Source: Gammaproteobacteria bacterium (GTDB lineage Bacteria; Pseudomonadota; Gammaproteobacteria; Ga0077536). Taken from it: a stretch of 64,000 bases of DNA. The DNA lies in contig JBFWYG010000002.1 of assembly GCA_050186725.1 (NCBI GenBank), positions 5,027-69,026 of the forward strand, given 5' to 3'. The notes beneath the pieces are model-generated. The model made no database searches and was not told the DNA's origin. It worked only from the letters and a program-made list of their open reading frames with translations. Numbering within the stretch: position 1 is the stretch's first letter; every line of letters starts with the position of its first letter. A program made the position numbers and the translations under genes. Positions 696-40,759 of this stretch are shown piece by piece.

Positions 696-1781
696 GTGAT
701 TGACGAGCAGGTGGAAGGAGTCGCCTCCCCCGACGACTGGGGCAGGCGACGCGGCAGCATTCGACACGAAGTGTCGCTGCCCGCCATTGTCGTCGACCGT
801 AAGGGGTATGCGGTCGCCTGTACGATCGAGGACATCAGCAGCACCGGCATGGCCTTGAAGATCGACCTCAAGACGCCGGAGCCCGGCCGCGAGGCGCTCG
901 ACCAGGGCAGCGGCGGCCGGCTCGAGTTCACCGTGAAGTCACTGCAGGCCGGCCAGCACAAGGTGCAGGTGCCGGTGCAGATCATGTGGCGCACGCCGAC
1001 CGGCATGGGCGTGCGCTTCAAGCGCAATGACGAGAGCCTCCGCGACGCGCTCAAGATCATCGCCCAGGCCGCGGTCGAAGCCCGCGCCAAGGACACCGGC
1101 CAGCAGCGCCGCCAGGCAGGCCAGCAGGCGCGCAAGACCATGCTGGCCTGCCGCAGGACCGCCGAGAAGCTGTTGCCGAACATCATCTGGACGCTGCGCA
1201 CCGAGACCACCAAGCGGCTGCGCCAAGAGGCCGAGGGGGCGTCGGTGGCCGAAGCGCGCGAGGCGCGCGCCGCGGCGGACCTGCTGGACGAGAAGGCCAT
1301 CCCCATCGGGCGCACCATCGAGCGCCTGTTCCTGCAAGCCTTCGCCGTCACCAGCGACCTCGATCAGACCCAGGAACTCACCATCGCGCCGGTGCTCGGC
1401 GCACGCCGCCCCGGCGAGAATACGGGCGGCGGGCTGATCGGCGTGGTGGCAGACAGCGTGGTGGAGAGCGACGCCACCATCATCGCCATCGGCCACGCGG
1501 CGGCCGAGAAATTCAAGCTCAAGCTGTTCCAGCTGAACGTGCGCCTGGCGAACGTGCTCGGCCACGCGCTCGACGTCGAGCACAATCCGCTGCAGCCGGC
1601 CAACATCTTCCGCATCTTCTGGCAGGCGACGGTCGAGTACTGCGATTCGCCGCGCGTGCGGCGCTGCATGTACGACGCCATCCGCGTGCGCGTGGTGCCG
1701 CTGCTCGGCGAGCTCTACGACGCCATCGACAAGACCCTCGACGACGAACAGGTTCCACGCGCCTTCGGCCGCCTCGGCTGA
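696..1781 (+). CDS. PilZ-domain protein (putative c-di-GMP receptor) with uncharacterised C-terminal domain
   Basis: GTG start. N-terminus carries RxxxR (RRRGSIRHE) and D/NxSxxG (EDISSTGMAL) PilZ signature motifs. The C-terminal ~230 aa has no recognisable motif. Confidence 0.6.
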   Translation: MIDEQVEGVASPDDWGRRRGSIRHEVSLPAIVVDRKGYAVACTIEDISSTGMALKIDLKTPEPGREALDQGSGGRLEFTVKSLQAGQHKVQVPVQIMWRTPTGMGVRFKRNDESLRDALKIIAQAAVEARAKDTGQQRRQAGQQARKTMLACRRTAEKLLPNIIWTLRTETTKRLRQEAEGASVAEAREARAAADLLDEKAIPIGRTIERLFLQAFAVTSDLDQTQELTIAPVLGARRPGENTGGGLIGVVADSVVESDATIIAIGHAAAEKFKLKLFQLNVRLANVLGHALDVEHNPLQPANIFRIFWQATVEYCDSPRVRRCMYDAIRVRVVPLLGELYDAIDKTLDDEQVPRAFGRLG

Positions 1782-2418: not shown

Positions 2419-3198
2419 TCAGGCGTTCCGCACCGTGAGCCCACCGTCCACCGCCAGCACCTGGCCGGTGATGTACTGCGCGGCCGGCAGCACGAAGTTC
2501 AACGTGCCGTGGGCGACTTCCTCGGGCTCCGCGTAGCGCTTGAGCGCGACGCGGCGACGCGCGAACTCGGCCTTGGCGCTGTCCGGGATCTCGGCCGTCA
2601 TGCCGGTGTTGATCGGGCCCGGGCAGATGCAGTTGACGGTCACGTTGCGCGTGCCGAATTCCACCGCCAGGGAACGGGTGAGGCCGATCACGCCGGTCTT
2701 GGCCGCGGTATAGGGACTGAAGCCGCGAGTCGCGCCCAGGCCCTCGGTGGACGCGATGTTGACGATGCGCCCGCCACCGCTCTTCAAGAGATGGGGCATG
2801 CACACGCGAATCAGCATCACCTGCGCGGTGAGCAGCACGTCGAGATGCTTGTTCCACACAGCCACGTAGTCCTCGGCGTCCAGGTCGAGCTGGCGCGAGA
2901 TGCCGGCGTTGTTGACCAGGATGTCGAGCCCGCCCCAGCGCGCGACGATTTCACCGACCACCTGCTCGCGCGCGGCAGCGCTGCTGACGTCGAGCGCCCA
3001 GCCGGCCGCGCTGCCGCCGGCGGCGGTGATCTCCTCGACCACGCGCTGGACCTTGTCGGCATCGAGATCGGTCACCGCGACATGCGCGCCCTCGTCGGCG
3101 AACAGGTGGGCGGTGGCGCGGCCCATGCCGCTCGCCGCGCCGGTGACCAGCGCTGTCTTGCCGGCGATGCTGCGGCTCAGTTTGCTCAGACGTGGCAT
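2419..3198 (-). CDS. SDR-family oxidoreductase (3-oxoacyl-ACP reductase-like)
   Basis: TGAASGMG cofactor motif, NNAG, catalytic S...YxxxK (SPYTAAK). Length 259 aa. Confidence 0.85.
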   Translation of the reverse strand: MPRLSKLSRSIAGKTALVTGAASGMGRATAHLFADEGAHVAVTDLDADKVQRVVEEITAAGGSAAGWALDVSSAAAREQVVGEIVARWGGLDILVNNAGISRQLDLDAEDYVAVWNKHLDVLLTAQVMLIRVCMPHLLKSGGGRIVNIASTEGLGATRGFSPYTAAKTGVIGLTRSLAVEFGTRNVTVNCICPGPINTGMTAEIPDSAKAEFARRRVALKRYAEPEEVAHGTLNFVLPAAQYITGQVLAVDGGLTVRNA

Positions 3199-3246
3199 GA
3201 CTCTCTCCCCTCGATTTTTCGTTGATTGGCAATGAATTCGGCGGCC

Positions 3247-4833
3247 TCAGCCGCCCTGCGCGAGGCGTTCTTCGGCCAGCGCGCGCAGCTTCGCTTTCTG
3301 GATCTTGGTGCCGTTGGCGCTCAAGGTGGTCGGGAACGCCTCCAGCACGAACACTCGCTTCGGTGCCTTGTAGCCCGCCAGGCGCGCGCGGCAGTGCGCC
3401 ATCACCGCCTCGGCGTCCACCTCGCCCTCGCGCGCGAGGACGAAGGCCACCGGCGCCGGCGCGCCGTCCACCTGCACTGCCACCACCTGGCTGCTCAGCA
3501 CCTGCGGATGCTGGTCGATGACCGCTTCGATCTCGAGCGGGCTGGTGAGGAAGCCGCCCAGGCGCAGCGTGTCGCCCATGCGCGCGAGGTAGCAGAAGCG
3601 ACCATCGGCCTCGAGATAGCCGAGGTCGCCGGTGCGCAGGTAGCCATCGGCGGTAAACGCGGCGGCGGTCGCGGCAGGGTCGCCGTAGTACTCGTGCATC
3701 AGGCTGGGGCCGGCGATCTCGAGTTCGCCGGCGACACCCACCGGCAGCAATTCACCGCTCTCGGGATCGCGCACTCGCACCCGCGCCTCGGGCGCGACCG
3801 GCAGTCCCCCGCCCTTGCGCCGCTCGTTGGCCGGCAGGGCTAGCGGCTGTAGCGCGTACAGCGCGTGACATTCGCTCATGCCGTACAGGCCGCGCAGGGT
3901 CACACCGCGCGTGGCCGCGCGCTCCACGATGTCCTCCAGCGCCGGGTTGAACAGCGCGAAACCGAAGTGGCGCAGGCTCGGAAAGGCCTGTTGCTCGTCG
4001 ACCTCGGCCAGCATGCGGTCGATCATGTCGTCGACGCCGTTCATGTGCGTGATGCCGAGTTCGCGCACCAGGCGCGCCGCCTGCGGGGCATCGAACACCG
4101 GCATGACTTCCATCGGCGCGCGCGCGACGAGCGCGGCCAGCGCCTGGGTGAAGCCGTACACACCGCACAGCGGCAGCGCCTGCAGGACGCGGCATGGACC
4201 ATCGTCGAGGCCCAGGCCACGAGCCGCGTCGGCCGCGTGGCGCGCCACCGTGCCCTGCACGTGGCACACGAACTTGGGCGCCTTGGTGGTGCCCGAGGTG
4301 GTGAAGATGACGCAGCGTGCGTCCGGCCCGCCGACGACGGGGGGCGCCGGACCGTCGAGATCCGCGTAGCGCGTGCTCGGCACGCCCGGCAGCGGTTCGC
4401 CGCGCGCCTCGTCCGGTGCTTCGTTGTAGACGATGACGCGCTCGATGGCGCTGAGCGCGGCCGGTGGCACCTCGCGCAGGATGCCGGCGAAGTCGATGGC
4501 CTTGAAGGTCGGCCACAGCGCCAGCATGCGACAGCCGGACCGGCCGACGATGTCCGCCACCTCGTGGGCGCGAAAGCGCGTGTTGACCGACACCAGGATC
4601 GCGCCGAGCCGGGCGCAGGCGAACAACAGCGTGAGCCAGGCGGGAATGTTCGGCAGCCACACCGCGATGCGGTCGCCCGATCTCAAACCGTGGGCCGCGA
4701 GGCCGGCGGCGACCCGCGCGCTCTCCGCGCGCAGTTCCGCAAAGGTCATCGCGCGGCCGGCGTAGCACAGCGCGACGACGTCGTCGGGCGCATCGGCCAG
4801 CAGCGCGGTCAGATCGCGCGACGCGTGCAGCAT
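3247..4833 (-). CDS. AMP-dependent acyl-CoA synthetase/ligase
   Basis: AMP-binding motif TSGTTKAPK, plus YLRTGDLG and GYKAPK C-terminal motifs. Start set at internal MLHASRD so that it abuts the upstream gene. The ORF track extends to 4914. Confidence 0.8.
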   Translation of the reverse strand: MLHASRDLTALLADAPDDVVALCYAGRAMTFAELRAESARVAAGLAAHGLRSGDRIAVWLPNIPAWLTLLFACARLGAILVSVNTRFRAHEVADIVGRSGCRMLALWPTFKAIDFAGILREVPPAALSAIERVIVYNEAPDEARGEPLPGVPSTRYADLDGPAPPVVGGPDARCVIFTTSGTTKAPKFVCHVQGTVARHAADAARGLGLDDGPCRVLQALPLCGVYGFTQALAALVARAPMEVMPVFDAPQAARLVRELGITHMNGVDDMIDRMLAEVDEQQAFPSLRHFGFALFNPALEDIVERAATRGVTLRGLYGMSECHALYALQPLALPANERRKGGGLPVAPEARVRVRDPESGELLPVGVAGELEIAGPSLMHEYYGDPAATAAAFTADGYLRTGDLGYLEADGRFCYLARMGDTLRLGGFLTSPLEIEAVIDQHPQVLSSQVVAVQVDGAPAPVAFVLAREGEVDAEAVMAHCRARLAGYKAPKRVFVLEAFPTTLSANGTKIQKAKLRALAEERLAQGG

Positions 4834-4835
4834 GG

Positions 4836-5447
4836 TCACCTTCCTGTCTTCTGCGTGGAGGCGTGTCGCCATACCAGCAGCTGGTTGTTGGCGGGCAGCG
4901 CGAGATTCTCGCACAAGGCCAGTCCGACCCGCGCCGCCAGCGCTTCGAGCTCGGCGAGATCGCGCAGGCCGAAGCCGGGATCAAGGCCGCGCGCCCAGGC
5001 GTCCAGGCGCAGGTTGCCTTCGCTGGTGAAGCGGCCGTCGCGGTTGAATGGTCCGTACAAGAGCAAGGGACCACCTGGGCGCAACACACCGGCCACGCCC
5101 GCGAACAGCGCCTCGACCGCGGGCCAGGTCATGCAGTGCACGACGTTGGCCGCGTAGACCGCGTCAACCGTCGTCACCGGCCAGGGGCTCACGCGCACAT
5201 CGAGCGCGAGCGGCGCGGGCAGCGCGACATCCGCGCCGGCGAGGTTCGCGGCCAGTGCCGCGACCCCCGTGGGATGCTCGCTCGCCTGCCAGCGCAGTCC
5301 GGGCAGCGCGGCGGCGAAATAGCAGGCGTGCTGACCGCTGCCGGCGCCAATCTCGAGCACCTCGCGTGCGTTCTCGAGCAGCGGGCCGAGGGCCGCGAGG
5401 ATCGGCGCCTTGTTGCGTTCGGCGGCGTGGCTGAAGTCCTGGAACAT
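4836..5447 (-). CDS. DUF938-type SAM-dependent methyltransferase-like protein
   Basis: MFQDFSHAAERNKAPIL N-terminus and EIGAGSGQH glycine-rich SAM-binding motif. Its stop lies 2 bp from the ligase start, so an operon with ligase and SDR is likely. Confidence 0.55.
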   Translation of the reverse strand: MFQDFSHAAERNKAPILAALGPLLENAREVLEIGAGSGQHACYFAAALPGLRWQASEHPTGVAALAANLAGADVALPAPLALDVRVSPWPVTTVDAVYAANVVHCMTWPAVEALFAGVAGVLRPGGPLLLYGPFNRDGRFTSEGNLRLDAWARGLDPGFGLRDLAELEALAARVGLALCENLALPANNQLLVWRHASTQKTGR

Positions 5448-5549
5448 CGCGCCAGTCTAGCCGCAGCGCGGCACGACCACACTGGCTCGGCGAGCGACAC
5501 ACGGCCTGTGCTAAGGTCGCGCTACTTCGCCTTCACACCCGGCACCAGC

Positions 5550-7367
5550 ATGAACTCTCCCACCGCGGCGGGCGCCGCGCTCGACCCGCCGCGCGCGCGA
5601 CGACGCCTCGCCGGCCTGCGCGGCCTGCGCCCCTTCCTCGCGCCCTATCGCGCCGTCATCGCCGCGGCGCTGGTCGCCCTGCTGGCCGCCGCGGGCGCGT
5701 CGCTCGCCATGCCGGTCGCGGTGCGCCACGTGATCGACGCCGGTCTCGGCGACGCGCATGGCGCGGCGGTGGATCGCTATTTTCTCGGCCTGTTCGTGCT
5801 CGCCGTCGCGACCGCCTGCTTCGCCGCGCTGCGCTTCTACCTGGTGTCCTGGCTCGGCGAACGAGTGGTGGCCGATCTGCGCTCGGCGGTGTTCCGCCAC
5901 GTGCTCGGCCTGTCGTCGTCCTTCTTCGAAGTGACCAAGAGCGGCGAACTGCTCTCGCGCCTCACCACCGACACCACGCTCATCCAGAACGTGGTCGGCA
6001 GCAGCCTGTCGGTCGCGCTGCGCAGTTCGCTGACCCTCGGCGGATCGGTGGTGATGCTGACCGTCACCAGTCCACGCCTGACCGGCATCATCCTGCTGGT
6101 GATCCCGCTGGTGGTGGTACCGATCATCCTCGCCGGCCGGCGCGTGCGAGCGCTGTCCCGCGCGAGCCAGGACCGGCTCGCCGACACCTCTGCCCTGGCG
6201 GGCGAGGTGCTGAACGCGATGTCGCTGGTGCAGGCCTATACTCTGGAGGCCCTGCACGGCGCGCGCTACGAGCAGGCGGTGGAGCAGGCCTTCCTCGCGG
6301 CGCGCAAGCGCATCCGCCAGCGCGCGCTCCTCACCGCCTATGCCATCTCCATGGTGTTCGCCGCGCTGGTATTCGTGCTGTGGGTCGGCGCGCAGGACGT
6401 GGTGAGCGGGCGCATGAGCGGCGGCCAGCTCGGCCAGTTCCTGCTCTACGCGGTGTTCGCCGGTGGATCGACCGCCGGCCTGTCGGAGATCTTCGGCGCC
6501 CTGCAGCAGGCCGGTGGCGCCACCGAGAGACTGGTGGAGCTGCTGGGCGTACGGCCCGATCCGCCGCTGCCGGCCACGCCCACGCCGCTACCCACGCCGT
6601 GCCGCGGCGAATTGAGCTTCGAGCACGTGCGCTTCAGCTACCCGTCGCGGCCCACGCCGCCGGCGCTCAATGACTTCTCGCTGACGCTCAGGCGCGGCGA
6701 GACCATCGCTCTGGTCGGCCCGTCGGGCGCCGGCAAGAGCAGCGTGCTGGCGCTCGCGCTCGCCTTCTATCGGCCACAGGCCGGACGCATCCTGCTGGAC
6801 GGCGTGGATCTCGCCCTGGTCGATCCGCGCGAACTGCGCGCCCACATCGCCATCGTCGCGCAGGACACCGTGCTGTTCGCCGACAGCATCCTGGAGAACA
6901 TCCGCTACGGGCGGCCCGACGCCAGCGACGAGGAAGTGCGCGCCGCGGCGCGCGCGGCCGCCGCGTCCGAGTTCATCGAGCGGCTCCCCGACGGCTATCT
7001 CACCCAGGTCGGCGAACGCGGCGTGCGGCTCTCCGGCGGCCAGCAGCAGCGCATCTCCATCGCGCGCGCGGTGCTGAAGCAGCCCGCCATCCTGCTGCTC
7101 GACGAAGCGACCAGCGCGCTCGACGCCGAGTCGGAGTTGGCGGTGCAGGCGGCGCTCGAAGACCTGGTCCACGACCGCGCGACGCTCGTCATCGCGCATC
7201 GTCTCGCCACCGTGCGCCGCGCGGACCGCATCGTGGTGATGGACGCCGGTCGCATCGTGGCCAGCGGCACCCACGAGGATCTCACCGAGGGCGGCGGACT
7301 CTATGCGCGCCTGGCCGAACTGCAGTTCAGCGACGTCGGCCCCATCGACAGCCTGACGACGAGTTGA
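5550..7367 (+). CDS. ABC transporter, fused permease/ATP-binding (MsbA/lipid-exporter-like)
   Basis: Six-TM N-terminal domain, then Walker A GPSGAGKSS, ABC signature LSGGQQQR and Walker B ILLLDEATSALD. The ORF-track entry 4863..7367 is an artefactual N-terminal extension. MNSPTAAG at 5550 gives about 605 aa. Confidence 0.85.
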   Translation: MNSPTAAGAALDPPRARRRLAGLRGLRPFLAPYRAVIAAALVALLAAAGASLAMPVAVRHVIDAGLGDAHGAAVDRYFLGLFVLAVATACFAALRFYLVSWLGERVVADLRSAVFRHVLGLSSSFFEVTKSGELLSRLTTDTTLIQNVVGSSLSVALRSSLTLGGSVVMLTVTSPRLTGIILLVIPLVVVPIILAGRRVRALSRASQDRLADTSALAGEVLNAMSLVQAYTLEALHGARYEQAVEQAFLAARKRIRQRALLTAYAISMVFAALVFVLWVGAQDVVSGRMSGGQLGQFLLYAVFAGGSTAGLSEIFGALQQAGGATERLVELLGVRPDPPLPATPTPLPTPCRGELSFEHVRFSYPSRPTPPALNDFSLTLRRGETIALVGPSGAGKSSVLALALAFYRPQAGRILLDGVDLALVDPRELRAHIAIVAQDTVLFADSILENIRYGRPDASDEEVRAAARAAAASEFIERLPDGYLTQVGERGVRLSGGQQQRISIARAVLKQPAILLLDEATSALDAESELAVQAALEDLVHDRATLVIAHRLATVRRADRIVVMDAGRIVASGTHEDLTEGGGLYARLAELQFSDVGPIDSLTTS

Positions 7368-7372
7368 GCCTC

Positions 7373-7395
7373 GGCCGCGCGTCCCGCGCGCGGCC
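7373..7395. terminator. GC-rich hairpin immediately after ABC transporter stop (candidate intrinsic terminator, no T-tract)
   Basis: ggccgcgcg-tccc-cgcgcggcc is a perfect 9-bp stem 6 nt after the TGA. Confidence 0.3.
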
Positions 7396-7577
7396 CGTTC
7401 CCACCCCATTCCCGCCCCGTCGCCGCGTCGCGCGGCGCCGACTGCCGTACGCGACGTCGCCCGCGCGCCTGCGCGGCTATCAAAAAACTCGCCTGCCCAG
7501 CCGCTAGTGGAGGAGCTCTCCCGCCACTGGCCAGCGCCTCGCGCGAGCCATTTCCAGTCGTCAACTCGGAGTCGAAC

Positions 7578-10211
7578 ATGGACCTGAGCGTCAAGCAGAA
7601 ACTATGGGCCTTCGCGGCCTTCAGCATCATCGCCACTCTGATGGTGGGCCTCGTCGGCTATCACGGCGAAAAGGCCCAGGGCGACGCACTGAAGGTGCTG
7701 AATGTCCAGTTGAGCGCGCTGCGCAACCACATGGAAGCTGACATGATGCACGATGCGCTGCGCGCCGACGTGCTGTCGGCGTTGCGCGCGGCCGCGAGTG
7801 GTGATGCCGACGCACGACGCGAGGTCGAGAGCGATCTCAAGGAGCACATCGCGAATTTCGAGGCGGTGCTCGCCGACAACCAGGCGCTGCCCCTGTCGGG
7901 CGACGTCAAAGACGCGCTCGGCTCGGTTGCCCCGGCGCTGCAGTCCTACGAGACCGCCGCCAACACCATCGTGCAGCAGGCCTTCACCGACAGCGCGGCT
8001 GCCGAGAAGCTGATGCCGGACTTCCTGGTCGCCTTCGGCGCGCTCGAGCAGGAGATGGGCAAGGTCTCGGACCTGGTGGAGGACAAGGCCAAGCAGGCCG
8101 AGGCGTCGGCCGTCGCGCTGGCGGCGCGGTCAGTGATGCTGATGTCGGTCGTGATCCTCGGCGCGGCCATCGCCGCGCTGGTGGTGTCCTACTTCCTGGT
8201 GCGCAGCGTGGTCAATCCGCTCGACACGCTGCGCGCGGCGATCGAAGCGCTGCGCGGCGGTGACAGCAGCGGCACGCGCCTGTCGGGCTTCAAGCACGAG
8301 TTCGCCGGCGTGGAGCACGCCTTCAATGGCGTGCTCGACGACCTCGATGCGCAGCACCGCGCCGAACAGTTGCGCGCGCAGGCCGCGTTCCGCGTGCAGC
8401 AGGCGCTGAATGCCGCCACCACCAACGTGGTGCTGAGCGACGAGCGCCTGGACGTGGTCTACGTCAACGACACCGCGCGCGCGATGTTCGAGCGCTACGC
8501 CGCCGACCTGCGCAAGGACCTGCCCGGCTTCGACACGGCGCAGATGATCGGCCGCGGGGTCGAGCAGTTCTACGCTGAACGCGGCATGCGCGACACGCTG
8601 CAGCGCCTGACTACGCCGCGCACCGACGAGGTCGTGCTGGGCGGCAAGACCTTTTCCGTGACCGCCACCCCGGTACGCGGCGCGCAGGGCGAGCAGCTCG
8701 GCGTGGTGTGCGAGTGGGTCGATCTCACCGAGCAGCGCGAAGCGGAGCACCAGATCCAGGCGGTGCTGGCCGACGCCACCGCCGGCCGCCTCGACAGCCG
8801 CCTGGAGGCCGAGCGCTTCCGCGGCTTCACGCGCGCGCTGGCGCTGTCGGTCAACCAGATGATGGACGCGGTCACCGCGCCGCTGAACGTCGCCGCGGCG
8901 CACCTGAGCGCGATCGCCGACGGCAAGCTGCCGGCGCCGATCACCGCCGAGTTCCACGGCGCGTTCAACGACATCAAGAACAACCTCAACACCTGCAGCG
9001 AAGTGCTGCGCGCGATGGTCGAGGACGCCACTACGCTGGTCGAGGCCGCGCAGGCCGGCCGGCTCGAGGAACGCGCCTCGCTCGAGCGCCACTGGGGTGA
9101 TTTCCGCAAGATCGTCGCGGGCATGAACAACATGCTCGACTCCGTGGCGCAGCCGATCACCGCCGCACGCACCGTCATGACCGCGCTCGCGGCCGGCGAT
9201 CTGTCCCAGCGCATGGAGGGCGACTACCAGGGTGAGTTCGCGGTGCTGCGCGACGCGATGGACGCCTCCATCGCCAATCTCGCCAACATGGTCAAGCGCA
9301 TCGGCGATTCGTCGTCCAGCATCGGCAGCTCGGCGAGCGAAATAGCCAAGGGCAACCAGGACCTCAACCGCCGCACCCAGGAACAGGCGGCCTCCATCGA
9401 GGAGACCACCTCGGCCATCCAGTCGCTCACGACCCGCGTACAGGAGAACACCGAGAACGCGCGGCGCGCCAACCAGCTCGCCGCCTCCGCGCGCACCGAG
9501 GCCGAAAAGGGCGGCAAGGTGGTCGCCGACGCGATCGGCGCGATGGGCGAGATCAACAGCGCCAGCGCCAAGATTGCCGACATCATCTCGGTCATCGACG
9601 GCATCGCCTTCCAGACCAACCTGCTGGCGCTGAACGCGGCGGTCGAAGCCGCCCGCGCCGGCGAACAGGGACGCGGCTTCGCGGTGGTGGCGAGCGAGGT
9701 GCGCAACCTCGCGCAGAACAGCGCGGCGGCGGCCAAGGAAATCAAGGATCTCATCGGCGACAGCGTCGACAAGGTCACCCACGGCACCCAGCTGGTCAAC
9801 GAGTCGGGCAGCACGTTGCGCGACATCGTCGGCGCGGTGAAGAACGTCAGCGACATCATCGCCGAGATCACCGCCGCGTCCGAGGAACAGCAGGTCGGTA
9901 TCGAACAGGTCAACCGCGCGCTGGTGCAGCTCGACGAAGTCACGCAGCAGAACGCGGCGCTGGTCGAGGAAGCGACCGCGGCCAGCGAGTCGATGGACGA
10001 CGAGACGCGATCGCTGACCGATCTCATGGCCTTCTTCCAGGGCGGCGCCGCGGATGACGTCGCGCCCCGGGTCGAGGCGACGGAAGCGCCGCGCGTCGAG
10101 CGGCGCAAGGCCAACCGGCCGTGGTCCGAGCGCGCCGCACCGGTGATCGCGCCGGCCGCCTCACAGATCGCCGCGGGCGGCAACGGGAGTGACGTATGGA
10201 ACGAGTTCTGA
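7578..10211 (+). CDS. Methyl-accepting chemotaxis protein (4HB sensor, PAS, multiple HAMP, MCP signalling domain, C-terminal xWxxF pentapeptide)
   Basis: Two TM segments flank an N-terminal helical sensor. The PAS-like region runs [21 protein letters not shown]...[10 protein letters not shown]. Conserved MCP hairpin is [37 protein letters not shown]. The protein ends ...GSDVWNEF. Confidence 0.9.
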
Positions 10212-11410
10212 GCGTGCGCGGAGGCGCACGGGCCTGGGCCCTGCTGGCCGGATCCTGGCTGGCGCAGGGGGCCATGGCCGCCGATGACGCCCAGCCCTGG
10301 TTGCTGGGCGACTGGAACGGCCACCGCTCGGCGCTCGCCGAGCGCGGCCTCGACATGGAGTTCCTCGCTACCAGCGACGTGATGGCGGTGGTCGACGGCG
10401 GACGCTCGCGGGGCGTCGAGGCGCTCGCCAACTTCGATGCGGTGTTCAACCTGGACACCGGCACCGCGGGCTGGTGGTCGAACGGCACGTTCCGCATGCA
10501 TGTGATCGGCTCGGTGGGCGGCTATCCCAGCCAGCGCGTGGGCGACATGCAGTTCACGAGCAACTACGAAGCCATCTCCAACACGGTGACGTTCTACGGC
10601 TTGAGCTACGAGCAACGCATGCTGGACGACCGGCTGGGACTCCTGGTCGGCCTGCACGAGGTGAACGAAGACTTCTACGTGACGGAAATGAGCGTGCTGT
10701 TCCTGAACAGCTCGCTCGGCATCGGCATCGACGTGACCCAGGCGGGGCCGTCGACGTTCCCGGTCACGGCGCCGGGTGTGCGGCTACGCCTGAACTGGAC
10801 ACCAGACACCTACCTGCTGGCCGCGGTCTACGACGGCGTACCCGGCGACCCCGACAATCCCTACGGGCCGCAGATCCAGTTCGACCACGGCGACGGCGTG
10901 TTCGCCATCGGTGAGGCCGGCCTGCTCGGCGGCGAAGGACGCTACTACAAGGTTGGCGTCGGCGGCTGGTATCGCACCAGCAACTTCGACGACCTGGACG
11001 GCGTGCCGCGGGACGAAAATTCCGGCATCTACGCGATCGCCGAAAGCGACCTGTGGCGCCAGGAGGATGGTCGCGGCGTGGGTGTGTTCACCCAGCTCGG
11101 TTTTGCTGACGGCGATGCCAACCAGGTGTCCACCTATGTAGGTGGGGGCGTCAACTGGACCGGGCCTTGCGCCTGTCGACCGGCGGACGTGGCGGGTCTG
11201 GCGGTCGCCCACGCGCGCAACGGCGACCACTTCATGCGGCTCGACCCGACCGTACAGCGCGCCGAGACGACCATCGAAATGACCTATCTCGTCGTGCCCA
11301 CGCCGTGGCTGTCGATCCAGCCCGACCTGCAGTACGTCATCGACCCGGGCACCGACAGCAGCCTGGACGACGCCCTGGTGCTCGGCCTGCGCGTGCAGCT
11401 CGCGCTGTGA
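10196..11410 (+). CDS. Carbohydrate-selective porin, OprB family
   Basis: Signal peptide (…[11 protein letters not shown]) then [17 protein letters not shown], typical of the OprB N-terminus. About 400 aa, beta-rich. The start overlaps the MCP 3' end by 16 nt. Confidence 0.65.
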
Positions 11411-11420
11411 GCGCCGCGCG

Positions 11421-11798
11421 CTAGAGCAGTTCGACCACCACCCGCTCGGCCTCCCCGGCGACCGCCGGCAGGCGGGCGCCGACGAAGGCGTCGCGGCTGT
11501 TGCCGCGCGGCAGCTGCGCCGGACCGACCACGCGGCGCTGTTCGGCGCGCGCCTTGCCCTGGCCATCGACGATGGCCACGCGCAGCACCCGCGGCGTGAG
11601 CACGCGGGTCAGGAGGTTGCGCGAGATGCGCGCCGCGACCACGGTCGCGTCGCCTTCGCTGCGCACCTCGGTGGATACCACGCGCAGCGCGCCGCCATTC
11701 GGGCTCAGCACCGGCGCGGCCTGCAGCGATCCCGACACGGTCAGCGCACTCGCCACGGCCAGCGCGCGCCAGGCGCGATGGGGAATCTTGGTATGCAT
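11421..11798 (-). CDS. Hypothetical secreted/periplasmic protein
   Basis: N-terminal signal peptide (ALAVASALTVSGSLQA/AP). No recognisable motifs. 125 aa. Confidence 0.35.
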   Translation of the reverse strand: MHTKIPHRAWRALAVASALTVSGSLQAAPVLSPNGGALRVVSTEVRSEGDATVVAARISRNLLTRVLTPRVLRVAIVDGQGKARAEQRRVVGPAQLPRGNSRDAFVGARLPAVAGEAERVVVELL

Positions 11799-38733: not shown

Positions 38734-39588
38734 ATGTTCCTCATCATCGGCATCGTCCTCGTGCTCGGCTGCGTGGCCGGCGGTTTCGTCCTGTCCCACG
38801 GCGAGCTGGCGGCCCTGTGGCAGCCCTACGAACTCCTGGTGATCGGCGGCGCCGCACTGGGCGCCTTCGTCATCGCCAACCCCATGAAGGTGATCAAGGC
38901 CACCTTCGGCGCGATCCCCAAGCTGCTCAAGGGCTCGAAGTACAAGAAAGAGCTCTACATGGACACCCTGGCGCTGCTCTACGACCTGCTGGTCAAGGCG
39001 CGCAAGCAGGGCATGATGGCGCTGGAAGGCGACGTCGACAAACCGGAGTCCAGCGAGATTTTCGGCAAGTACCCGACCCTGATGGCCGACCACCACCTGA
39101 TCGAATTCATCACCGACTACCTGCGCCTGCTGGCGGCCGGCAGCATCACCAGCCCCTACGAGCTCGACGCCTTGATGGACGTCGAGCTCGAGACCCACCA
39201 CCACGACGGCCACCAGCCGGCGGCGGCGCTGACCCGCGTGTGCGACGGCCTGCCGGGCTTCGGCATCGTCGCCGCGGTGCTCGGCATCGTCATCACCATG
39301 GGCGCCATCGGCGGACCGCCGGCGGAGCTCGGCCATCACGTCGCGGCGGCGCTGGTCGGCACCTTCTTGGGCATCCTTCTCGCCTACGGCTTCGTCGGCC
39401 CGATGGCGACCGCGGTCGAGCACATGGCGGCGGACGAGGCGCAGATGTTCCTCGCCATCAAGAACACGCTGGTGGCCTCGGCGCAGGGCTATGCCCCGCA
39501 GATCGCCATCGAGTTCGGCCGCAAGGCCATCGGCGGCCCGGACCGGCCGTCGTTCTCGGAGCTCGAGACCCGCGTGAAGGGCAAGTGA
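38734..39588 (+). CDS. motA: Flagellar motor stator protein MotA/PomA family
   Basis: 4-TM topology, conserved GPPAELGHHVAAALVGTFLGIL plug/TM3-4 region, 284 aa. Confidence 0.85.
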   Translation: MFLIIGIVLVLGCVAGGFVLSHGELAALWQPYELLVIGGAALGAFVIANPMKVIKATFGAIPKLLKGSKYKKELYMDTLALLYDLLVKARKQGMMALEGDVDKPESSEIFGKYPTLMADHHLIEFITDYLRLLAAGSITSPYELDALMDVELETHHHDGHQPAAALTRVCDGLPGFGIVAAVLGIVITMGAIGGPPAELGHHVAAALVGTFLGILLAYGFVGPMATAVEHMAADEAQMFLAIKNTLVASAQGYAPQIAIEFGRKAIGGPDRPSFSELETRVKGK

Positions 39589-39607
39589 CGGCCGGAGTCC
39601 ACTGAGC

Positions 39608-40759
39608 ATGGCCGCGAACCAGTCCGCCGCGCCGATCATCATCAAGAAGATCAAGAAGGGCGGCCATGGGCACCATGGCGGCGCCTGGAAGGTCGCGTTC
39701 GCCGACTTCGTGACGGCGATGATGGCCTTCTTCCTCCTGATGTGGCTGATGGCCTCGACCACCGTCGAGCAGCGCGCATCGATCTCGTCCTATTTTAACG
39801 ACCCGATGGCCAAGGTCGGCTTCGACGGCAACGGCGGCGGCAACCCCGCCTTGAACGGCGGCAGCGGCATTCTCACCGGGCGCGGGAAGAATCCCTTCAG
39901 CGGTCAATCCCAAGACGAAGAGAACAGCACCCGCAACGGGCCAGACGTGATGCTCGACGACGAACAGATCGAGCGCGCGCGCATGGTGCAGATGATGGAC
40001 GAGCTGAAGGAGGTGGTGGACGCCGGCAAGGCGCTCAAGGAGTTCGCCGACCAGATCCTGCTCGACATCACGCCCGAGGGGCTGCGCATTCAGATAGTCG
40101 ACAAGGAGAACCGCGCGATGTTCGACCAGGGCAGCGCGCGGCTGCAGCCCTACACCCGCGACATCCTGCACGAGATCGTGAAAGTGGTAAGCGAGGCGCC
40201 GAACCGCATCAGCATCTCCGGCCACACCGACGCCACGCCCTACGCGCGCAATGGCGACTATGGCAACTGGGAACTGTCCGCCGACCGCGCCAACGCCGCG
40301 CGCCGCGAACTGCTGGCCGGCGGGCTGGAGGAGGAGAAGATCGGACGCGTGGTCGGGCTCGGCTCTTCCGACCTGCTGGACCCCAGCCAGCCGCGCGCGC
40401 CCATCAACCGCCGCATCAGCATCGTGGTGCTGCGTGGCGATCATGGCACCGATACCAACCCGGACGGCAGCGCCGACGGCGCCCCCCCGCCGACGGCGCA
40501 AGAAGGCGAAGCGCTGCCCGCGCCCAGTGAAGCCCCCGAGGACGGCGCGCCGCCCGCGGCCGAAACCACCGATGGCGACACCGCGAGTGCGAGCGGCGCC
40601 AGTGAGGCCGCACCCGCGCTGGCGGGCCTGACCAGCGCGGCGAGCGCCGCGGACGCCGCGAGTCGCGCGGTGGCGAAGAAACTCGCCGCCAAGCCCGCGG
40701 CACCGGTCAAGACCAAGGCCAGGACCACCCGGCCGCGCGCCGCCAAGACCAAGGGCTGA
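39608..40759 (+). CDS. motB: Flagellar motor stator protein MotB (OmpA-like) with long Ala/Pro/Lys-rich C-terminal tail
   Basis: N-terminal TM with conserved Asp (FADFVTAMMAFFLLMW), OmpA-like peptidoglycan-binding core (ISGHTDATP...NWELSADRA). About 110 aa low-complexity extension. Confidence 0.8.
   Translation: MAANQSAAPIIIKKIKKGGHGHHGGAWKVAFADFVTAMMAFFLLMWLMASTTVEQRASISSYFNDPMAKVGFDGNGGGNPALNGGSGILTGRGKNPFSGQSQDEENSTRNGPDVMLDDEQIERARMVQMMDELKEVVDAGKALKEFADQILLDITPEGLRIQIVDKENRAMFDQGSARLQPYTRDILHEIVKVVSEAPNRISISGHTDATPYARNGDYGNWELSADRANAARRELLAGGLEEEKIGRVVGLGSSDLLDPSQPRAPINRRISIVVLRGDHGTDTNPDGSADGAPPPTAQEGEALPAPSEAPEDGAPPAAETTDGDTASASGASEAAPALAGLTSAASAADAASRAVAKKLAAKPAAPVKTKARTTRPRAAKTKG

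Follow-up and report, generated by a model that had tools for sequence, protein, structure and literature searches.

A chemoreceptor gene ending in a putative docking tag probably forms a two-gene operon with an overlapping gene for an OprB-family porin

Layout of the receptor-porin locus

A 64,000-nucleotide (nt) stretch of contig JBFWYG010000002.1 from a Gammaproteobacteria bacterium, hereafter called the window, carries a gene for a methyl-accepting chemotaxis protein (MCP) that is followed on the same strand by a gene for an outer-membrane porin of the OprB family (Table 1). The final codons of the receptor gene read gac, gta (10194-96), tgg (10197-99), aac, gag, ttc and tga (10209-11), such that the protein ends in the pentapeptide VWNEF. 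This sequence has the xWxxF form of the C-terminal tags by which some chemoreceptors bind the methyltransferase CheR and the methylesterase CheB. An ATG at 10196-10198, which joins the last base of the Val873 codon (gta) to the first two bases of the Trp874 codon (tgg), is in frame with the 404-amino-acid open reading frame (ORF) of the porin, and the two genes overlap by 16 nt. This overlap, which had been proposed in a first-pass annotation of the window, can be read directly from the DNA. We estimate a probability of about 0.7 that the locus as a whole is best explained as a two-gene operon, mcp-oprB, whose receptor carries a docking tag, whose porin start codon is embedded in the codons for that tag, and whose products are functionally linked.

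Both ORFs have the characteristics of real genes. Their third-position GC content (GC3) is 0.92 for the MCP and 0.88 for the porin, as is typical of genes in this window with its overall GC content of 68%. Pfam models identify the four-helix-bundle sensor (4HB_MCP_1), a PAS domain, two HAMP_2 domains and the signaling domain (MCPsignal, E 3e-52) in the receptor. From the N terminus, the protein is composed of a first transmembrane segment, the periplasmic four-helix-bundle sensor, a second transmembrane segment, a HAMP domain, an Aer2-like PAS domain, two HAMP_2 domains, a signaling domain of the 36H class, a linker and VWNEF. The assignment of the downstream gene to the OprB family, also made in the first-pass annotation, is confirmed by a match of porin residues 74-402 to Pfam family PF04966 (E 2.5e-52, 179 bits against a gathering score of 22.9).

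Table 1. Features of the receptor-porin locus (positions are those of the window)
Feature	Position	Strand	Details
Sigma-28 (FliA)-like promoter motif, CAAA-N15-GCCGCTA(G)	7481..7506	+	97 nt upstream of the MCP start codon
Shine-Dalgarno sequence of the MCP gene, GGAG	7568..7571	+	6 nt ahead of ATG 7578; read from the sequence
MCP gene	7578..10211	+	877 amino acids; Pfam, ORF list
Periplasmic four-helix-bundle ligand-binding domain	7665..8129	+	about residues 30-184; AlphaFold2
17-residue sensor motif	7725-7775	+	MCP residues 50-66, helix 1; nearly invariant
Aer2-type PAS domain	8382..8750	+	match to Aer2 structure 3VOL
Methylation-site motifs	9378-9431 and 9960-9986	+	alignment to Tar; second motif LVEEATAAS
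MCP signaling domain	9474..9944	+	residues 633-789; Pfam
C-terminal linker	10041..10193	+	51 amino acids (residues 822-872), from the end of the signaling helix (...MAFFQ821) to the pentapeptide
Shine-Dalgarno sequence of the porin gene, GGGAG	10185..10189	+	Gly870 (GGG) and first two bases of Ser871 (AGT); 6 nt before ATG 10196
Pentapeptide VWNEF (xWxxF), putative CheR/CheB docking tag	10194..10208	+	stop codon 10209-10211
OprB-family outer-membrane porin gene	10196..11410	+	404 amino acids; Pfam PF04966
Predicted porin signal peptide	10196-10279	+	28 amino acids
GC-rich hairpin, 7 base pairs, CGUGCGC-GGAG-GCGCACG	10213..10230	+	RNA fold; GTG 10214-10216 in the 5' arm
Convergent gene for a small secreted protein	11421..11798	-	125 amino acids, signal peptide; position conserved just after the porin gene

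Conservation of the pairing across genomes

We compared the gene neighborhoods of 79 loci that were fetched by receptor similarity and were not selected for the presence of porins. An OprB-type gene is adjacent to the receptor gene in 25 of the 38 loci whose receptor has this sensor domain, which is recognizable by its 17-residue motif, compared with none of the 41 MCP loci that lack it (Fisher p = 2e-11, uncorrected for relatedness). Seven of eight further orthologues that were looked up individually also have a porin gene immediately downstream.

The order and orientation of the two genes vary among lineages. The receptor gene precedes the porin gene in tandem in gammaproteobacterial metagenome-assembled genomes (MAGs), whereas Caulobacter, Phenylobacterium and Sphingomonas have a divergent pair, with a porin that is a confirmed member of PF04966 and with other neighbors that are unrelated. 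In one further locus (L063) the porin gene comes first and lies 2 nt from the receptor gene, directly after a cheY-cheA-cheW-mcp cluster. In a tree of the porin family, which includes many unlinked homologues, the linked porins occupy separate branches. The association is therefore specific to one sensor-domain family and has been either maintained or re-created across these rearrangements. This conserved neighborhood supports, without proving, a functional connection between the receptor and the porin, and the link posited in the first-pass annotation thus gains comparative backing. No description of an MCP-OprB pairing was found in the literature searched.

The most likely arrangement, as we infer it, is that the porin would serve as the outer-membrane entry route for the solute that is detected by the periplasmic sensor. 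A stronger proposal is that the two genes constitute a dedicated module of chemoreceptor and outer-membrane channel, repeatedly kept side by side and often coupled in translation, expressed with the flagellar regulon, in which the channel sets the input to the sensor and the solute is possibly cationic, perhaps a metal ion. We put forward this full version as a tentative idea that has less than an even chance of being correct.

Several observations weigh against a tight coupling of the two proteins. Of the 38 loci whose receptor has the sensor domain, 13 lack the porin gene, and a 49%-identical orthologue (L163) likewise has no adjacent porin gene. When viewed from the porin side, only two of 80 metagenomic OprB homologues have an MCP gene within 4 kb. 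These 80 homologues, at 29-63% identity (mostly 30-48%), were obtained from an alignment-based metagenome scan; the same kind of scan with the single porin sequence as query returned no matches. In addition, the wider region is largely syntenic within the closest clade anyway. These facts would be expected if adjacency had no meaning at the level of the ligand, such that a general or housekeeping channel merely shares a transcript with the receptor, or is useful together with the motility regulon, and the receptor senses a ligand that is independent of the porin. However, the adjacency survives the replacement of all other neighbors and changes in gene order and orientation, spans Gammaproteobacteria and Alphaproteobacteria, recruits porins from different branches of the family, and is restricted to MCPs with this one sensor domain. 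We regard this alternative as rather doubtful.

If the link is real, the pairing suggests that outer-membrane entry is genetically tied to chemoreception for some stimuli. With a dedicated module of the kind proposed above, passage through the outer membrane would be built into the chemosensory input and would co-evolve with it. The claims of the first-pass annotation are for the most part correct, if mainly ordinary. The added value of the present analysis lies in this conserved receptor-channel module and in the moving start codon described below, whereas the pentapeptide itself is routine. We consider the module to be a moderately novel lead and the gene overlap to be a small curiosity.

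Two of the loci mentioned above have additional features. In L063 (positions 2700-9923), which is from a Pseudomonadota MAG, the first mcp gene encodes a protein that ends in EEDWKEF, and the second mcp gene, located after the OprB-like gene, encodes the same sensor motif as the receptor described here. The porin ORF in this locus has no obvious canonical start codon, and an assembly indel is possible. In L163, the gene located 216 nt downstream of the receptor gene (6880-7803) codes for a 307-amino-acid protein with no Pfam match, which might represent a replacement partner or reflect loss of the module.

The embedded start codon of the porin gene

Several features of the DNA suggest that translation of the porin begins within the receptor gene. 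The ATG at 10196 is preceded at a spacing of 6 nt by the Shine-Dalgarno sequence GGGAG, and thus both a start codon and a ribosome-binding site for the downstream gene are located inside the 3' end of the upstream gene on the same strand. The same layout, GGGAG-N6-ATG, also opens long ORFs at 3198(-), 38584(-) and 50695(-). Four of the five sites of this kind in the window open long ORFs with high GC3, as do five of the 11 matches to the looser pattern GGGAG-N5-7-ATG/GTG. The region is built from codons that are rare in the window, namely GGG for Gly (8% of its codons), AGT for Ser (3%) and GTA for Val (2%). When the end of the receptor gene was randomly re-coded with synonymous codons according to window usage, the ATG appeared in 2.0% of trials, and the ATG together with a Shine-Dalgarno core at a working distance appeared in only 0.06%.

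Comparison of the 15 orthologous receptor-porin junctions of the close clade yields a mixed picture. A 93%-identical relative (L003) has an identical junction. A more distant locus (L162), whose receptor is 53% identical and ends in EQWEEF and whose genome is 56% GC, likewise has a 16-nt overlap, with GGAGG-N6-ATG in which the start codon lies within CAA-TGG. This locus has no alternative in-frame start codon ahead of its signal peptide, MGRILSSAVAFGACVATLTVQA/DD, which is of textbook form. Two other loci (L001 and L165) carry the embedded ATG plus a second ATG located 5 nt past the stop codon, both in frame, and these look like intermediate states.

At 11 of the 15 junctions, the only likely start codon is an ATG at or after the receptor stop codon, which is a point against the importance of the embedded start. 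Eight of these loci (L016, L002, L166, L167, L168, L169 and L080 among them) have their only ATG 3-10 nt past the stop codon, with a distance of 3-8 nt for most and of 10 nt in L168. In addition, L164 has its own ribosome-binding site, AAGGA, and an ATG 11 nt past the stop codon, L004 has a gap of 23 nt, and in L012 the start codon overlaps the stop codon as a classic TGATG. The codon before TGG is GTC, CTC or ACC in L016, L002 and L166-L169, and hence no ATG is formed there. Because the overlap is absent from most orthologues, the embedded ATG is dispensable for the module. A start codon located just after the stop codon is therefore the common and probably the ancestral state. An embedded start with a strong ribosome-binding site of its own appears to have replaced the after-stop start at least twice, and the one in L162 would have arisen independently of that in the window.

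These comparisons bring forward an alternative in which the porin of the window is translated from a GTG at 10214, in keeping with the after-stop starts of most orthologues. The ATG would then be a by-product of adjacent Val and Trp codons, the porin would be made by termination and reinitiation, and the overlap would have no function. The signal peptide that begins at this GTG is 22 amino acids long and thus nearer to the 19 amino acids of the orthologues than is the peptide predicted from the ATG, which also counts against the embedded start. However, the GTG, which is located 2 nt past the MCP stop codon, has no Shine-Dalgarno core upstream and sits in a GC-rich hairpin. The embedded ATG has instead a typical ribosome-binding layout assembled from three rare codons, and the embedded start is the only option in L162. 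RNA structure around the junction as a whole is no more stable than that of shuffled sequences (z = 0.9). On balance, we consider initiation at GTG 10214 to be unlikely and initiation at ATG 10196 to be quite probable. Support for a porin start at this ATG is thus confined to the lineage represented by the window, and the overlap is not conserved in the gene pair as a whole.

Overlapping, coupled genes are commonplace in bacterial operons, where the downstream ribosome-binding site and start codon are often located inside the end of an upstream gene on the same strand. What is particular to the present pair is that one frame of the shared codons would encode a conserved docking tag while the second frame would encode the beginning of a signal peptide. 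The codons for W-x-E-F-stop, when read in the second frame, yield M-(E/G)-R-(V/I)-L-S, and in the window the result is M-E-R-V-L-S, the charged start of the porin signal peptide. The docking-tag codons would thereby also serve as part of a ribosome-binding region and as the first codons of a secreted protein. The present pair also differs from the usual coupled genes in that the position of the start shifts between lineages, and it provides a small, clear example of how start codons can move in tight operons. The embedding of a channel start in a docking tag might be one lineage-specific way of locking the receptor and the channel together.

A protein that appears to be a fusion of an MCP with OprB (P0011, 1296 amino acids, L080:1390-5280) was rejected as a frameshift artifact near the receptor end. 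Its tail is in the porin frame (...CLERVLS...), and the adjoining LemA gene is also split in this assembly. Separately, the porin ORF of L012 (13006-14115) has an internal stop codon (...AQAGA*LFPVT...), indicative of a pseudogene or an assembly error.

Operon organization and a candidate flagellar promoter

The receptor and porin genes of the close clade are separated by -16 to +23 nt at each of the 15 junctions, which fits a single transcript and probable translational coupling. A generic promoter and terminator scan revealed no sigma-70-like promoter or terminator between the two genes, and the gene that follows the porin is convergent. Co-transcription and translational coupling are therefore plausible from the arrangement of the genes. 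We propose that both proteins are made from one mRNA on which the last 27 nt of the MCP gene double as the translation-initiation region of the porin, such that ribosomes would start the porin 13 nt before the MCP stop codon. Initiation might be independent, exploiting the strong ribosome-binding site, or it might be coupled to translation of the receptor.

A candidate promoter upstream of the receptor gene resembles those recognized by sigma-28. The pattern [TC]AAA-N15/16-GCCG[AC]TA has only one match in the window when both strands are counted together, compared with 0.07 expected from shuffled sequences. The sigma-28 consensus is TAAAGTTT-n11-GCCGATAA (PMC2859248), and the motif in the window reads CAAAAAAC-n11-GCCGCTAG. 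The corresponding sequence CTAAAG-N15/16-GCCG(C/A)TA is conserved at -97 to -130 in nine of the 11 closest loci, where the copies are better than that of the window, and in the form TAAAG...GCCG(C/A)TA the elements of the orthologues have a spacer of 12. Sigma-28 promoters also serve chemoreceptor genes of E. coli, aer and trg among them (PMC2859248). Arguing against a strong promoter in the window is its degenerate -35 element, CAAA, given that the equivalent change in E. coli lowers the activity of the aer promoter about ten-fold (PMC2859248). We consider it reasonable but unproven that the operon, including the porin gene, is under the control of a sigma-28-type late flagellar promoter. The motif would place expression of an outer-membrane porin alongside that of the late flagellar genes.

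The C-terminal docking tag and its linker

The C-terminal docking tag of chemoreceptors has been defined as xZxxZ, where Z is F, W or Y and where positions 2 and 5 are predominantly W and F; about 10% of chemoreceptors bear such tags, with enrichment among four-helix-bundle receptors (PMC7390727). VWNEF matches both the definition and the predominant residues, and so the resemblance to NWETF and GWEEF pointed out in the first-pass annotation is borne out. The probability that an xWxxF end arises by chance from the W and F content of this protein is about 1.7e-4. Moreover, the terminal W and F are retained in 23 of 27 near-full-length homologues of at least 49% identity. Among the exceptions, P0008, P0010 and P0011 have divergent or frameshifted tails, and P0031 simply has no tag. 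At the orthologous junctions, the W and F are present in all 15 cases while the surrounding linker is divergent. By its sequence, VWNEF is an ordinary xWxxF tag, and the receptor is a further member of the pentapeptide-bearing class.

The pentapeptide most likely functions in docking CheR and CheB, as judged from family precedent and conservation. VWNEF would hold these two enzymes close to the sites of methylation, as do NWETF of Tar and Tsr and GWEEF of McpB/Aer2. The presence of xWxxF on several paralogous MCPs of related genomes further implies the existence of a protein that reads the tag.

Three observations make this assignment less secure. First, tblastn searches with the E. coli proteins CheA, CheB, CheR, CheW, CheY and CheZ revealed no cheR, cheB, cheA, cheW or cheY gene in the window, and the same set of searches found only motA and motB, at 38.7-40.6 kb. 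Second, CheR enzymes that bind the pentapeptide are distinguished by an extended, Gly-rich loop in the beta-subdomain and an equivalent of Arg197 (PMC5907407). The che cluster of a related MAG (L014), whose receptor-porin pair is found in L012, encodes a CheR that has the long beta-loop and retains G188, G190 and G194, but position 197 is Ala in this single CheR. Third, the consensus more typically has acidic residues where VWNEF has Val (position 1) and Asn (position 3), and some CheB enzymes do not bind pentapeptides (PMC7698151). Accordingly, the sequence could be vestigial, or could be a C terminus used in some way other than as a tether for CheR and CheB in this organism. This possibility seems remote because the W and F are retained down to about 49% identity while the adjoining linker diverges, because paralogous MCPs of related genomes (L006, L007 and L018) also have xWxxF ends, and because the CheR of L014 possesses the long Gly-rich loop of its pentapeptide-binding counterparts.

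The linker between the signaling helix and the pentapeptide is rich in Ala, Arg, Gly and Pro, consistent with the low-complexity character initially ascribed to it, although it comprises 51 amino acids and not about 60. Unstructured linkers of this kind are variable in sequence and have a negative/positive/negative charge pattern (Velando et al., bioRxiv 10.1101/2024.03.07.583918). The linker of this MCP shows this charge pattern, with successive charges of -3, +4 and -1.

Within the linker is the sequence ERRKANRPW (10098-10124, MCP residues 841-849). Its general form, (E)RRxxxRPW, is found in 11 of the best 120 homologues, including some with only about 53% identity. According to Velando et al. 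(bioRxiv 10.1101/2024.03.07.583918), tether linkers have no reported feature that is conserved in sequence. The motif might provide an additional site for docking or positioning. In another locus (L097:4001-7400), an OprB homologue is closely followed by an MCP with a different sensor domain that ends in DDVLNEF, where Leu replaces the Trp of DVWNEF.

The porin and the nature of the ligand

The porin shares with the OprB protein of Pseudomonas (structure 4GEY) its membership in PF04966, a signal peptide and a size appropriate for a beta-barrel. However, it is only distantly related to this sugar porin. The alignment to P. putida OprB extends over the full length but has an E value of 1.3e-12, the protein is shorter (404 amino acids versus 436 for the solved OprB chain), and it is strongly acidic, with 50 Asp and Glu residues versus 21 Lys and Arg residues in the mature form and a net charge of about -29. 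Also unlike Pseudomonas OprB, it is paired with a chemoreceptor and is encoded outside of any sugar-uptake operon. No sugar-uptake or sugar-catabolic genes are present near the porin gene in the window or in the Caulobacter and Sphingomonas loci. The neighbors in the window instead code for an ATP-binding cassette (ABC) exporter, a luciferase-like monooxygenase, a glutathione S-transferase, an acyl-CoA ligase and a short-chain dehydrogenase/reductase, and thus the gene context typical of OprB-type sugar uptake is lacking.

An AlphaFold2 model of the sensor domain has four long helices and a predicted local distance difference test (pLDDT) score of 93.2. The 17-residue motif in helix 1, with its many Asp, His and Met residues, is common to MCPs of Caulobacter, Phenylobacterium, Sphingomonas, Pseudomonas, Rhizobium and others. 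Residues D55, M56, H58, D59, R62, D64, H90, Y124, F149 and F153 do not vary among 35 sequences, and E157 is nearly invariant. The invariant residues are located in the second half of helix 1 and at the start of helix 4. Tar binds aspartate in this region, at the dimer interface. A Foldseek search with the model returned only generic four-helix-bundle sensors of chemoreceptors and kinases (Adeh_2942, Vc1313, MCP2201, Tsr/Tar and PcaY) with 12-17% identity, and hence no ligand can be transferred to this domain from its structural neighbors. A homologue search with the sensor domain alone yielded mostly short fragments and added little.

The first-pass annotation called the downstream gene a sugar porin and envisioned it as a possible partner for ligand uptake, which would make the receptor a sugar sensor and the pair a unit for sugar uptake and chemotaxis. 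Although the Pfam family is named 'carbohydrate-selective porin, OprB' and the homology to the P. putida OprB structure is real, this view is improbable given that the match to OprB is distant (E 1e-12) relative to that with the broad family profile (2.5e-52), that no sugar ABC transporter, kinase or glycosidase genes lie near this pair or the Caulobacter and Sphingomonas pairs, that the OprB family includes the Mn2+ channel MnoP (PMC4827864), and that Asp, His and Glu abound in the conserved sensor pocket and the mature porin is so acidic. Direct binding of sugars is also not known for four-helix-bundle sensors. The sugar label derives from the family name and is unsupported here, which serves as a caution against labeling every member of PF04966 as a sugar porin.

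As a guess, the acid- and His-rich sensor pocket and the acidic porin would suit a cationic ligand better than a sugar. Study of the receptor-porin pair could reveal the ligands of two uncharacterized families together. The cultured strains of Caulobacter and Sphingomonas that carry the pair, Caulobacter sp. UNC358MFTsu5.1 with its divergent genes among them, might be useful in this regard.

Signal relay and comparison with Tar/Tsr and Aer2/McpB

The cytoplasmic portion of the receptor combines elements of two well-known systems. Residues 524 (in HAMP_2) to 837 align with residues 227-540 of E. coli Tar without gaps throughout the whole signaling domain, with 46% identity over the full high-scoring segment pair. 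This gapless alignment places the MCP in the length class of Tar (36H), and both methylation motifs are retained. Like Tar and Tsr of E. coli and Salmonella, the protein has a periplasmic four-helix-bundle sensor, a signaling domain of equal length, methylation motifs and a C-terminal xWxxF sequence after a linker. It differs from these receptors in its tag (VWNEF versus NWETF), in its linker, which is longer (51 versus about 30-35 amino acids) and carries the ERRKxxRPW motif, in the extra HAMP-PAS-HAMP-HAMP relay between the membrane and the signaling domain, and in the presence of a 3' porin gene whose start overlaps the tag.

The relay resembles that of P. aeruginosa Aer2/McpB, whose tag is GWEEF. 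Residues 268-479 match the PAS-HAMP crystal structure of this protein (3VOL) with an E value of 2.6e-32, and the two receptors have in common the PAS domain with its flanking poly-HAMP module, the 36H class and the pentapeptide, which is a fundamental feature of the Aer2/McpB family and binds CheR2 and CheB2. The C-terminal half of the receptor matches the NCBIfam model for Aer2 (NF041847) as far as the last residue, although the score of 552 bits is below the equivalog cut-off of 1200. Whereas Aer2 is a soluble receptor that senses O2 through heme bound by the PAS domain, the present MCP has the poly-HAMP sandwich together with two transmembrane segments and a periplasmic sensor, and its gene is located outside of any che2-type cluster.

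Sensing of heme-bound O2 by the PAS domain was considered and rejected. The heme ligand His234 of Aer2 is replaced by Tyr332 (8571-8573), whereas an equivalent of Trp283 is retained. Orthologues have Y, H, Q, F, L or V at the position of Tyr332, while true Aer2-like matches keep FHKNPxHQR. Because the position is occupied by Tyr and is variable among relatives, the PAS domain is probably a relay rather than a heme sensor. The receptor can be described, on the evidence of these alignments, as a Tar-like periplasmic sensor joined to an Aer2-like cytoplasmic relay that has lost the heme ligand, and it does not qualify as a member of the Aer2 family. More generally, there seems to be a clade of Aer2-like PAS domains that has lost canonical heme ligation.

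Other features of the window

Immediately after the porin gene is a convergent gene for a small protein with a signal peptide, and a small convergent ORF follows the porin gene in 12 loci, five of which are confirmed by sequence homology. The homologues beside a porin gene are in L003, L001, L002, L080 and L004 (38% identity). In L162, L164, L165, L166, L168 and L169, an unannotated convergent ORF of 106-134 amino acids occupies the corresponding position. The 125-amino-acid protein of the window has no Pfam or NCBIfam match. Its AlphaFold2 model is a beta-sandwich of low to moderate confidence, with a pLDDT score of 68 and no informative structural match.

Elsewhere in the window, genes with possible relevance to motility and signaling are also found. 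The homologues of motA and motB are located at 38734-40759 (+), and their products are 48% and 40% identical to the E. coli proteins. At 696-1781 (+) is a gene coding for a PilZ-DUF1631 protein, which is possibly an effector of cyclic di-GMP.

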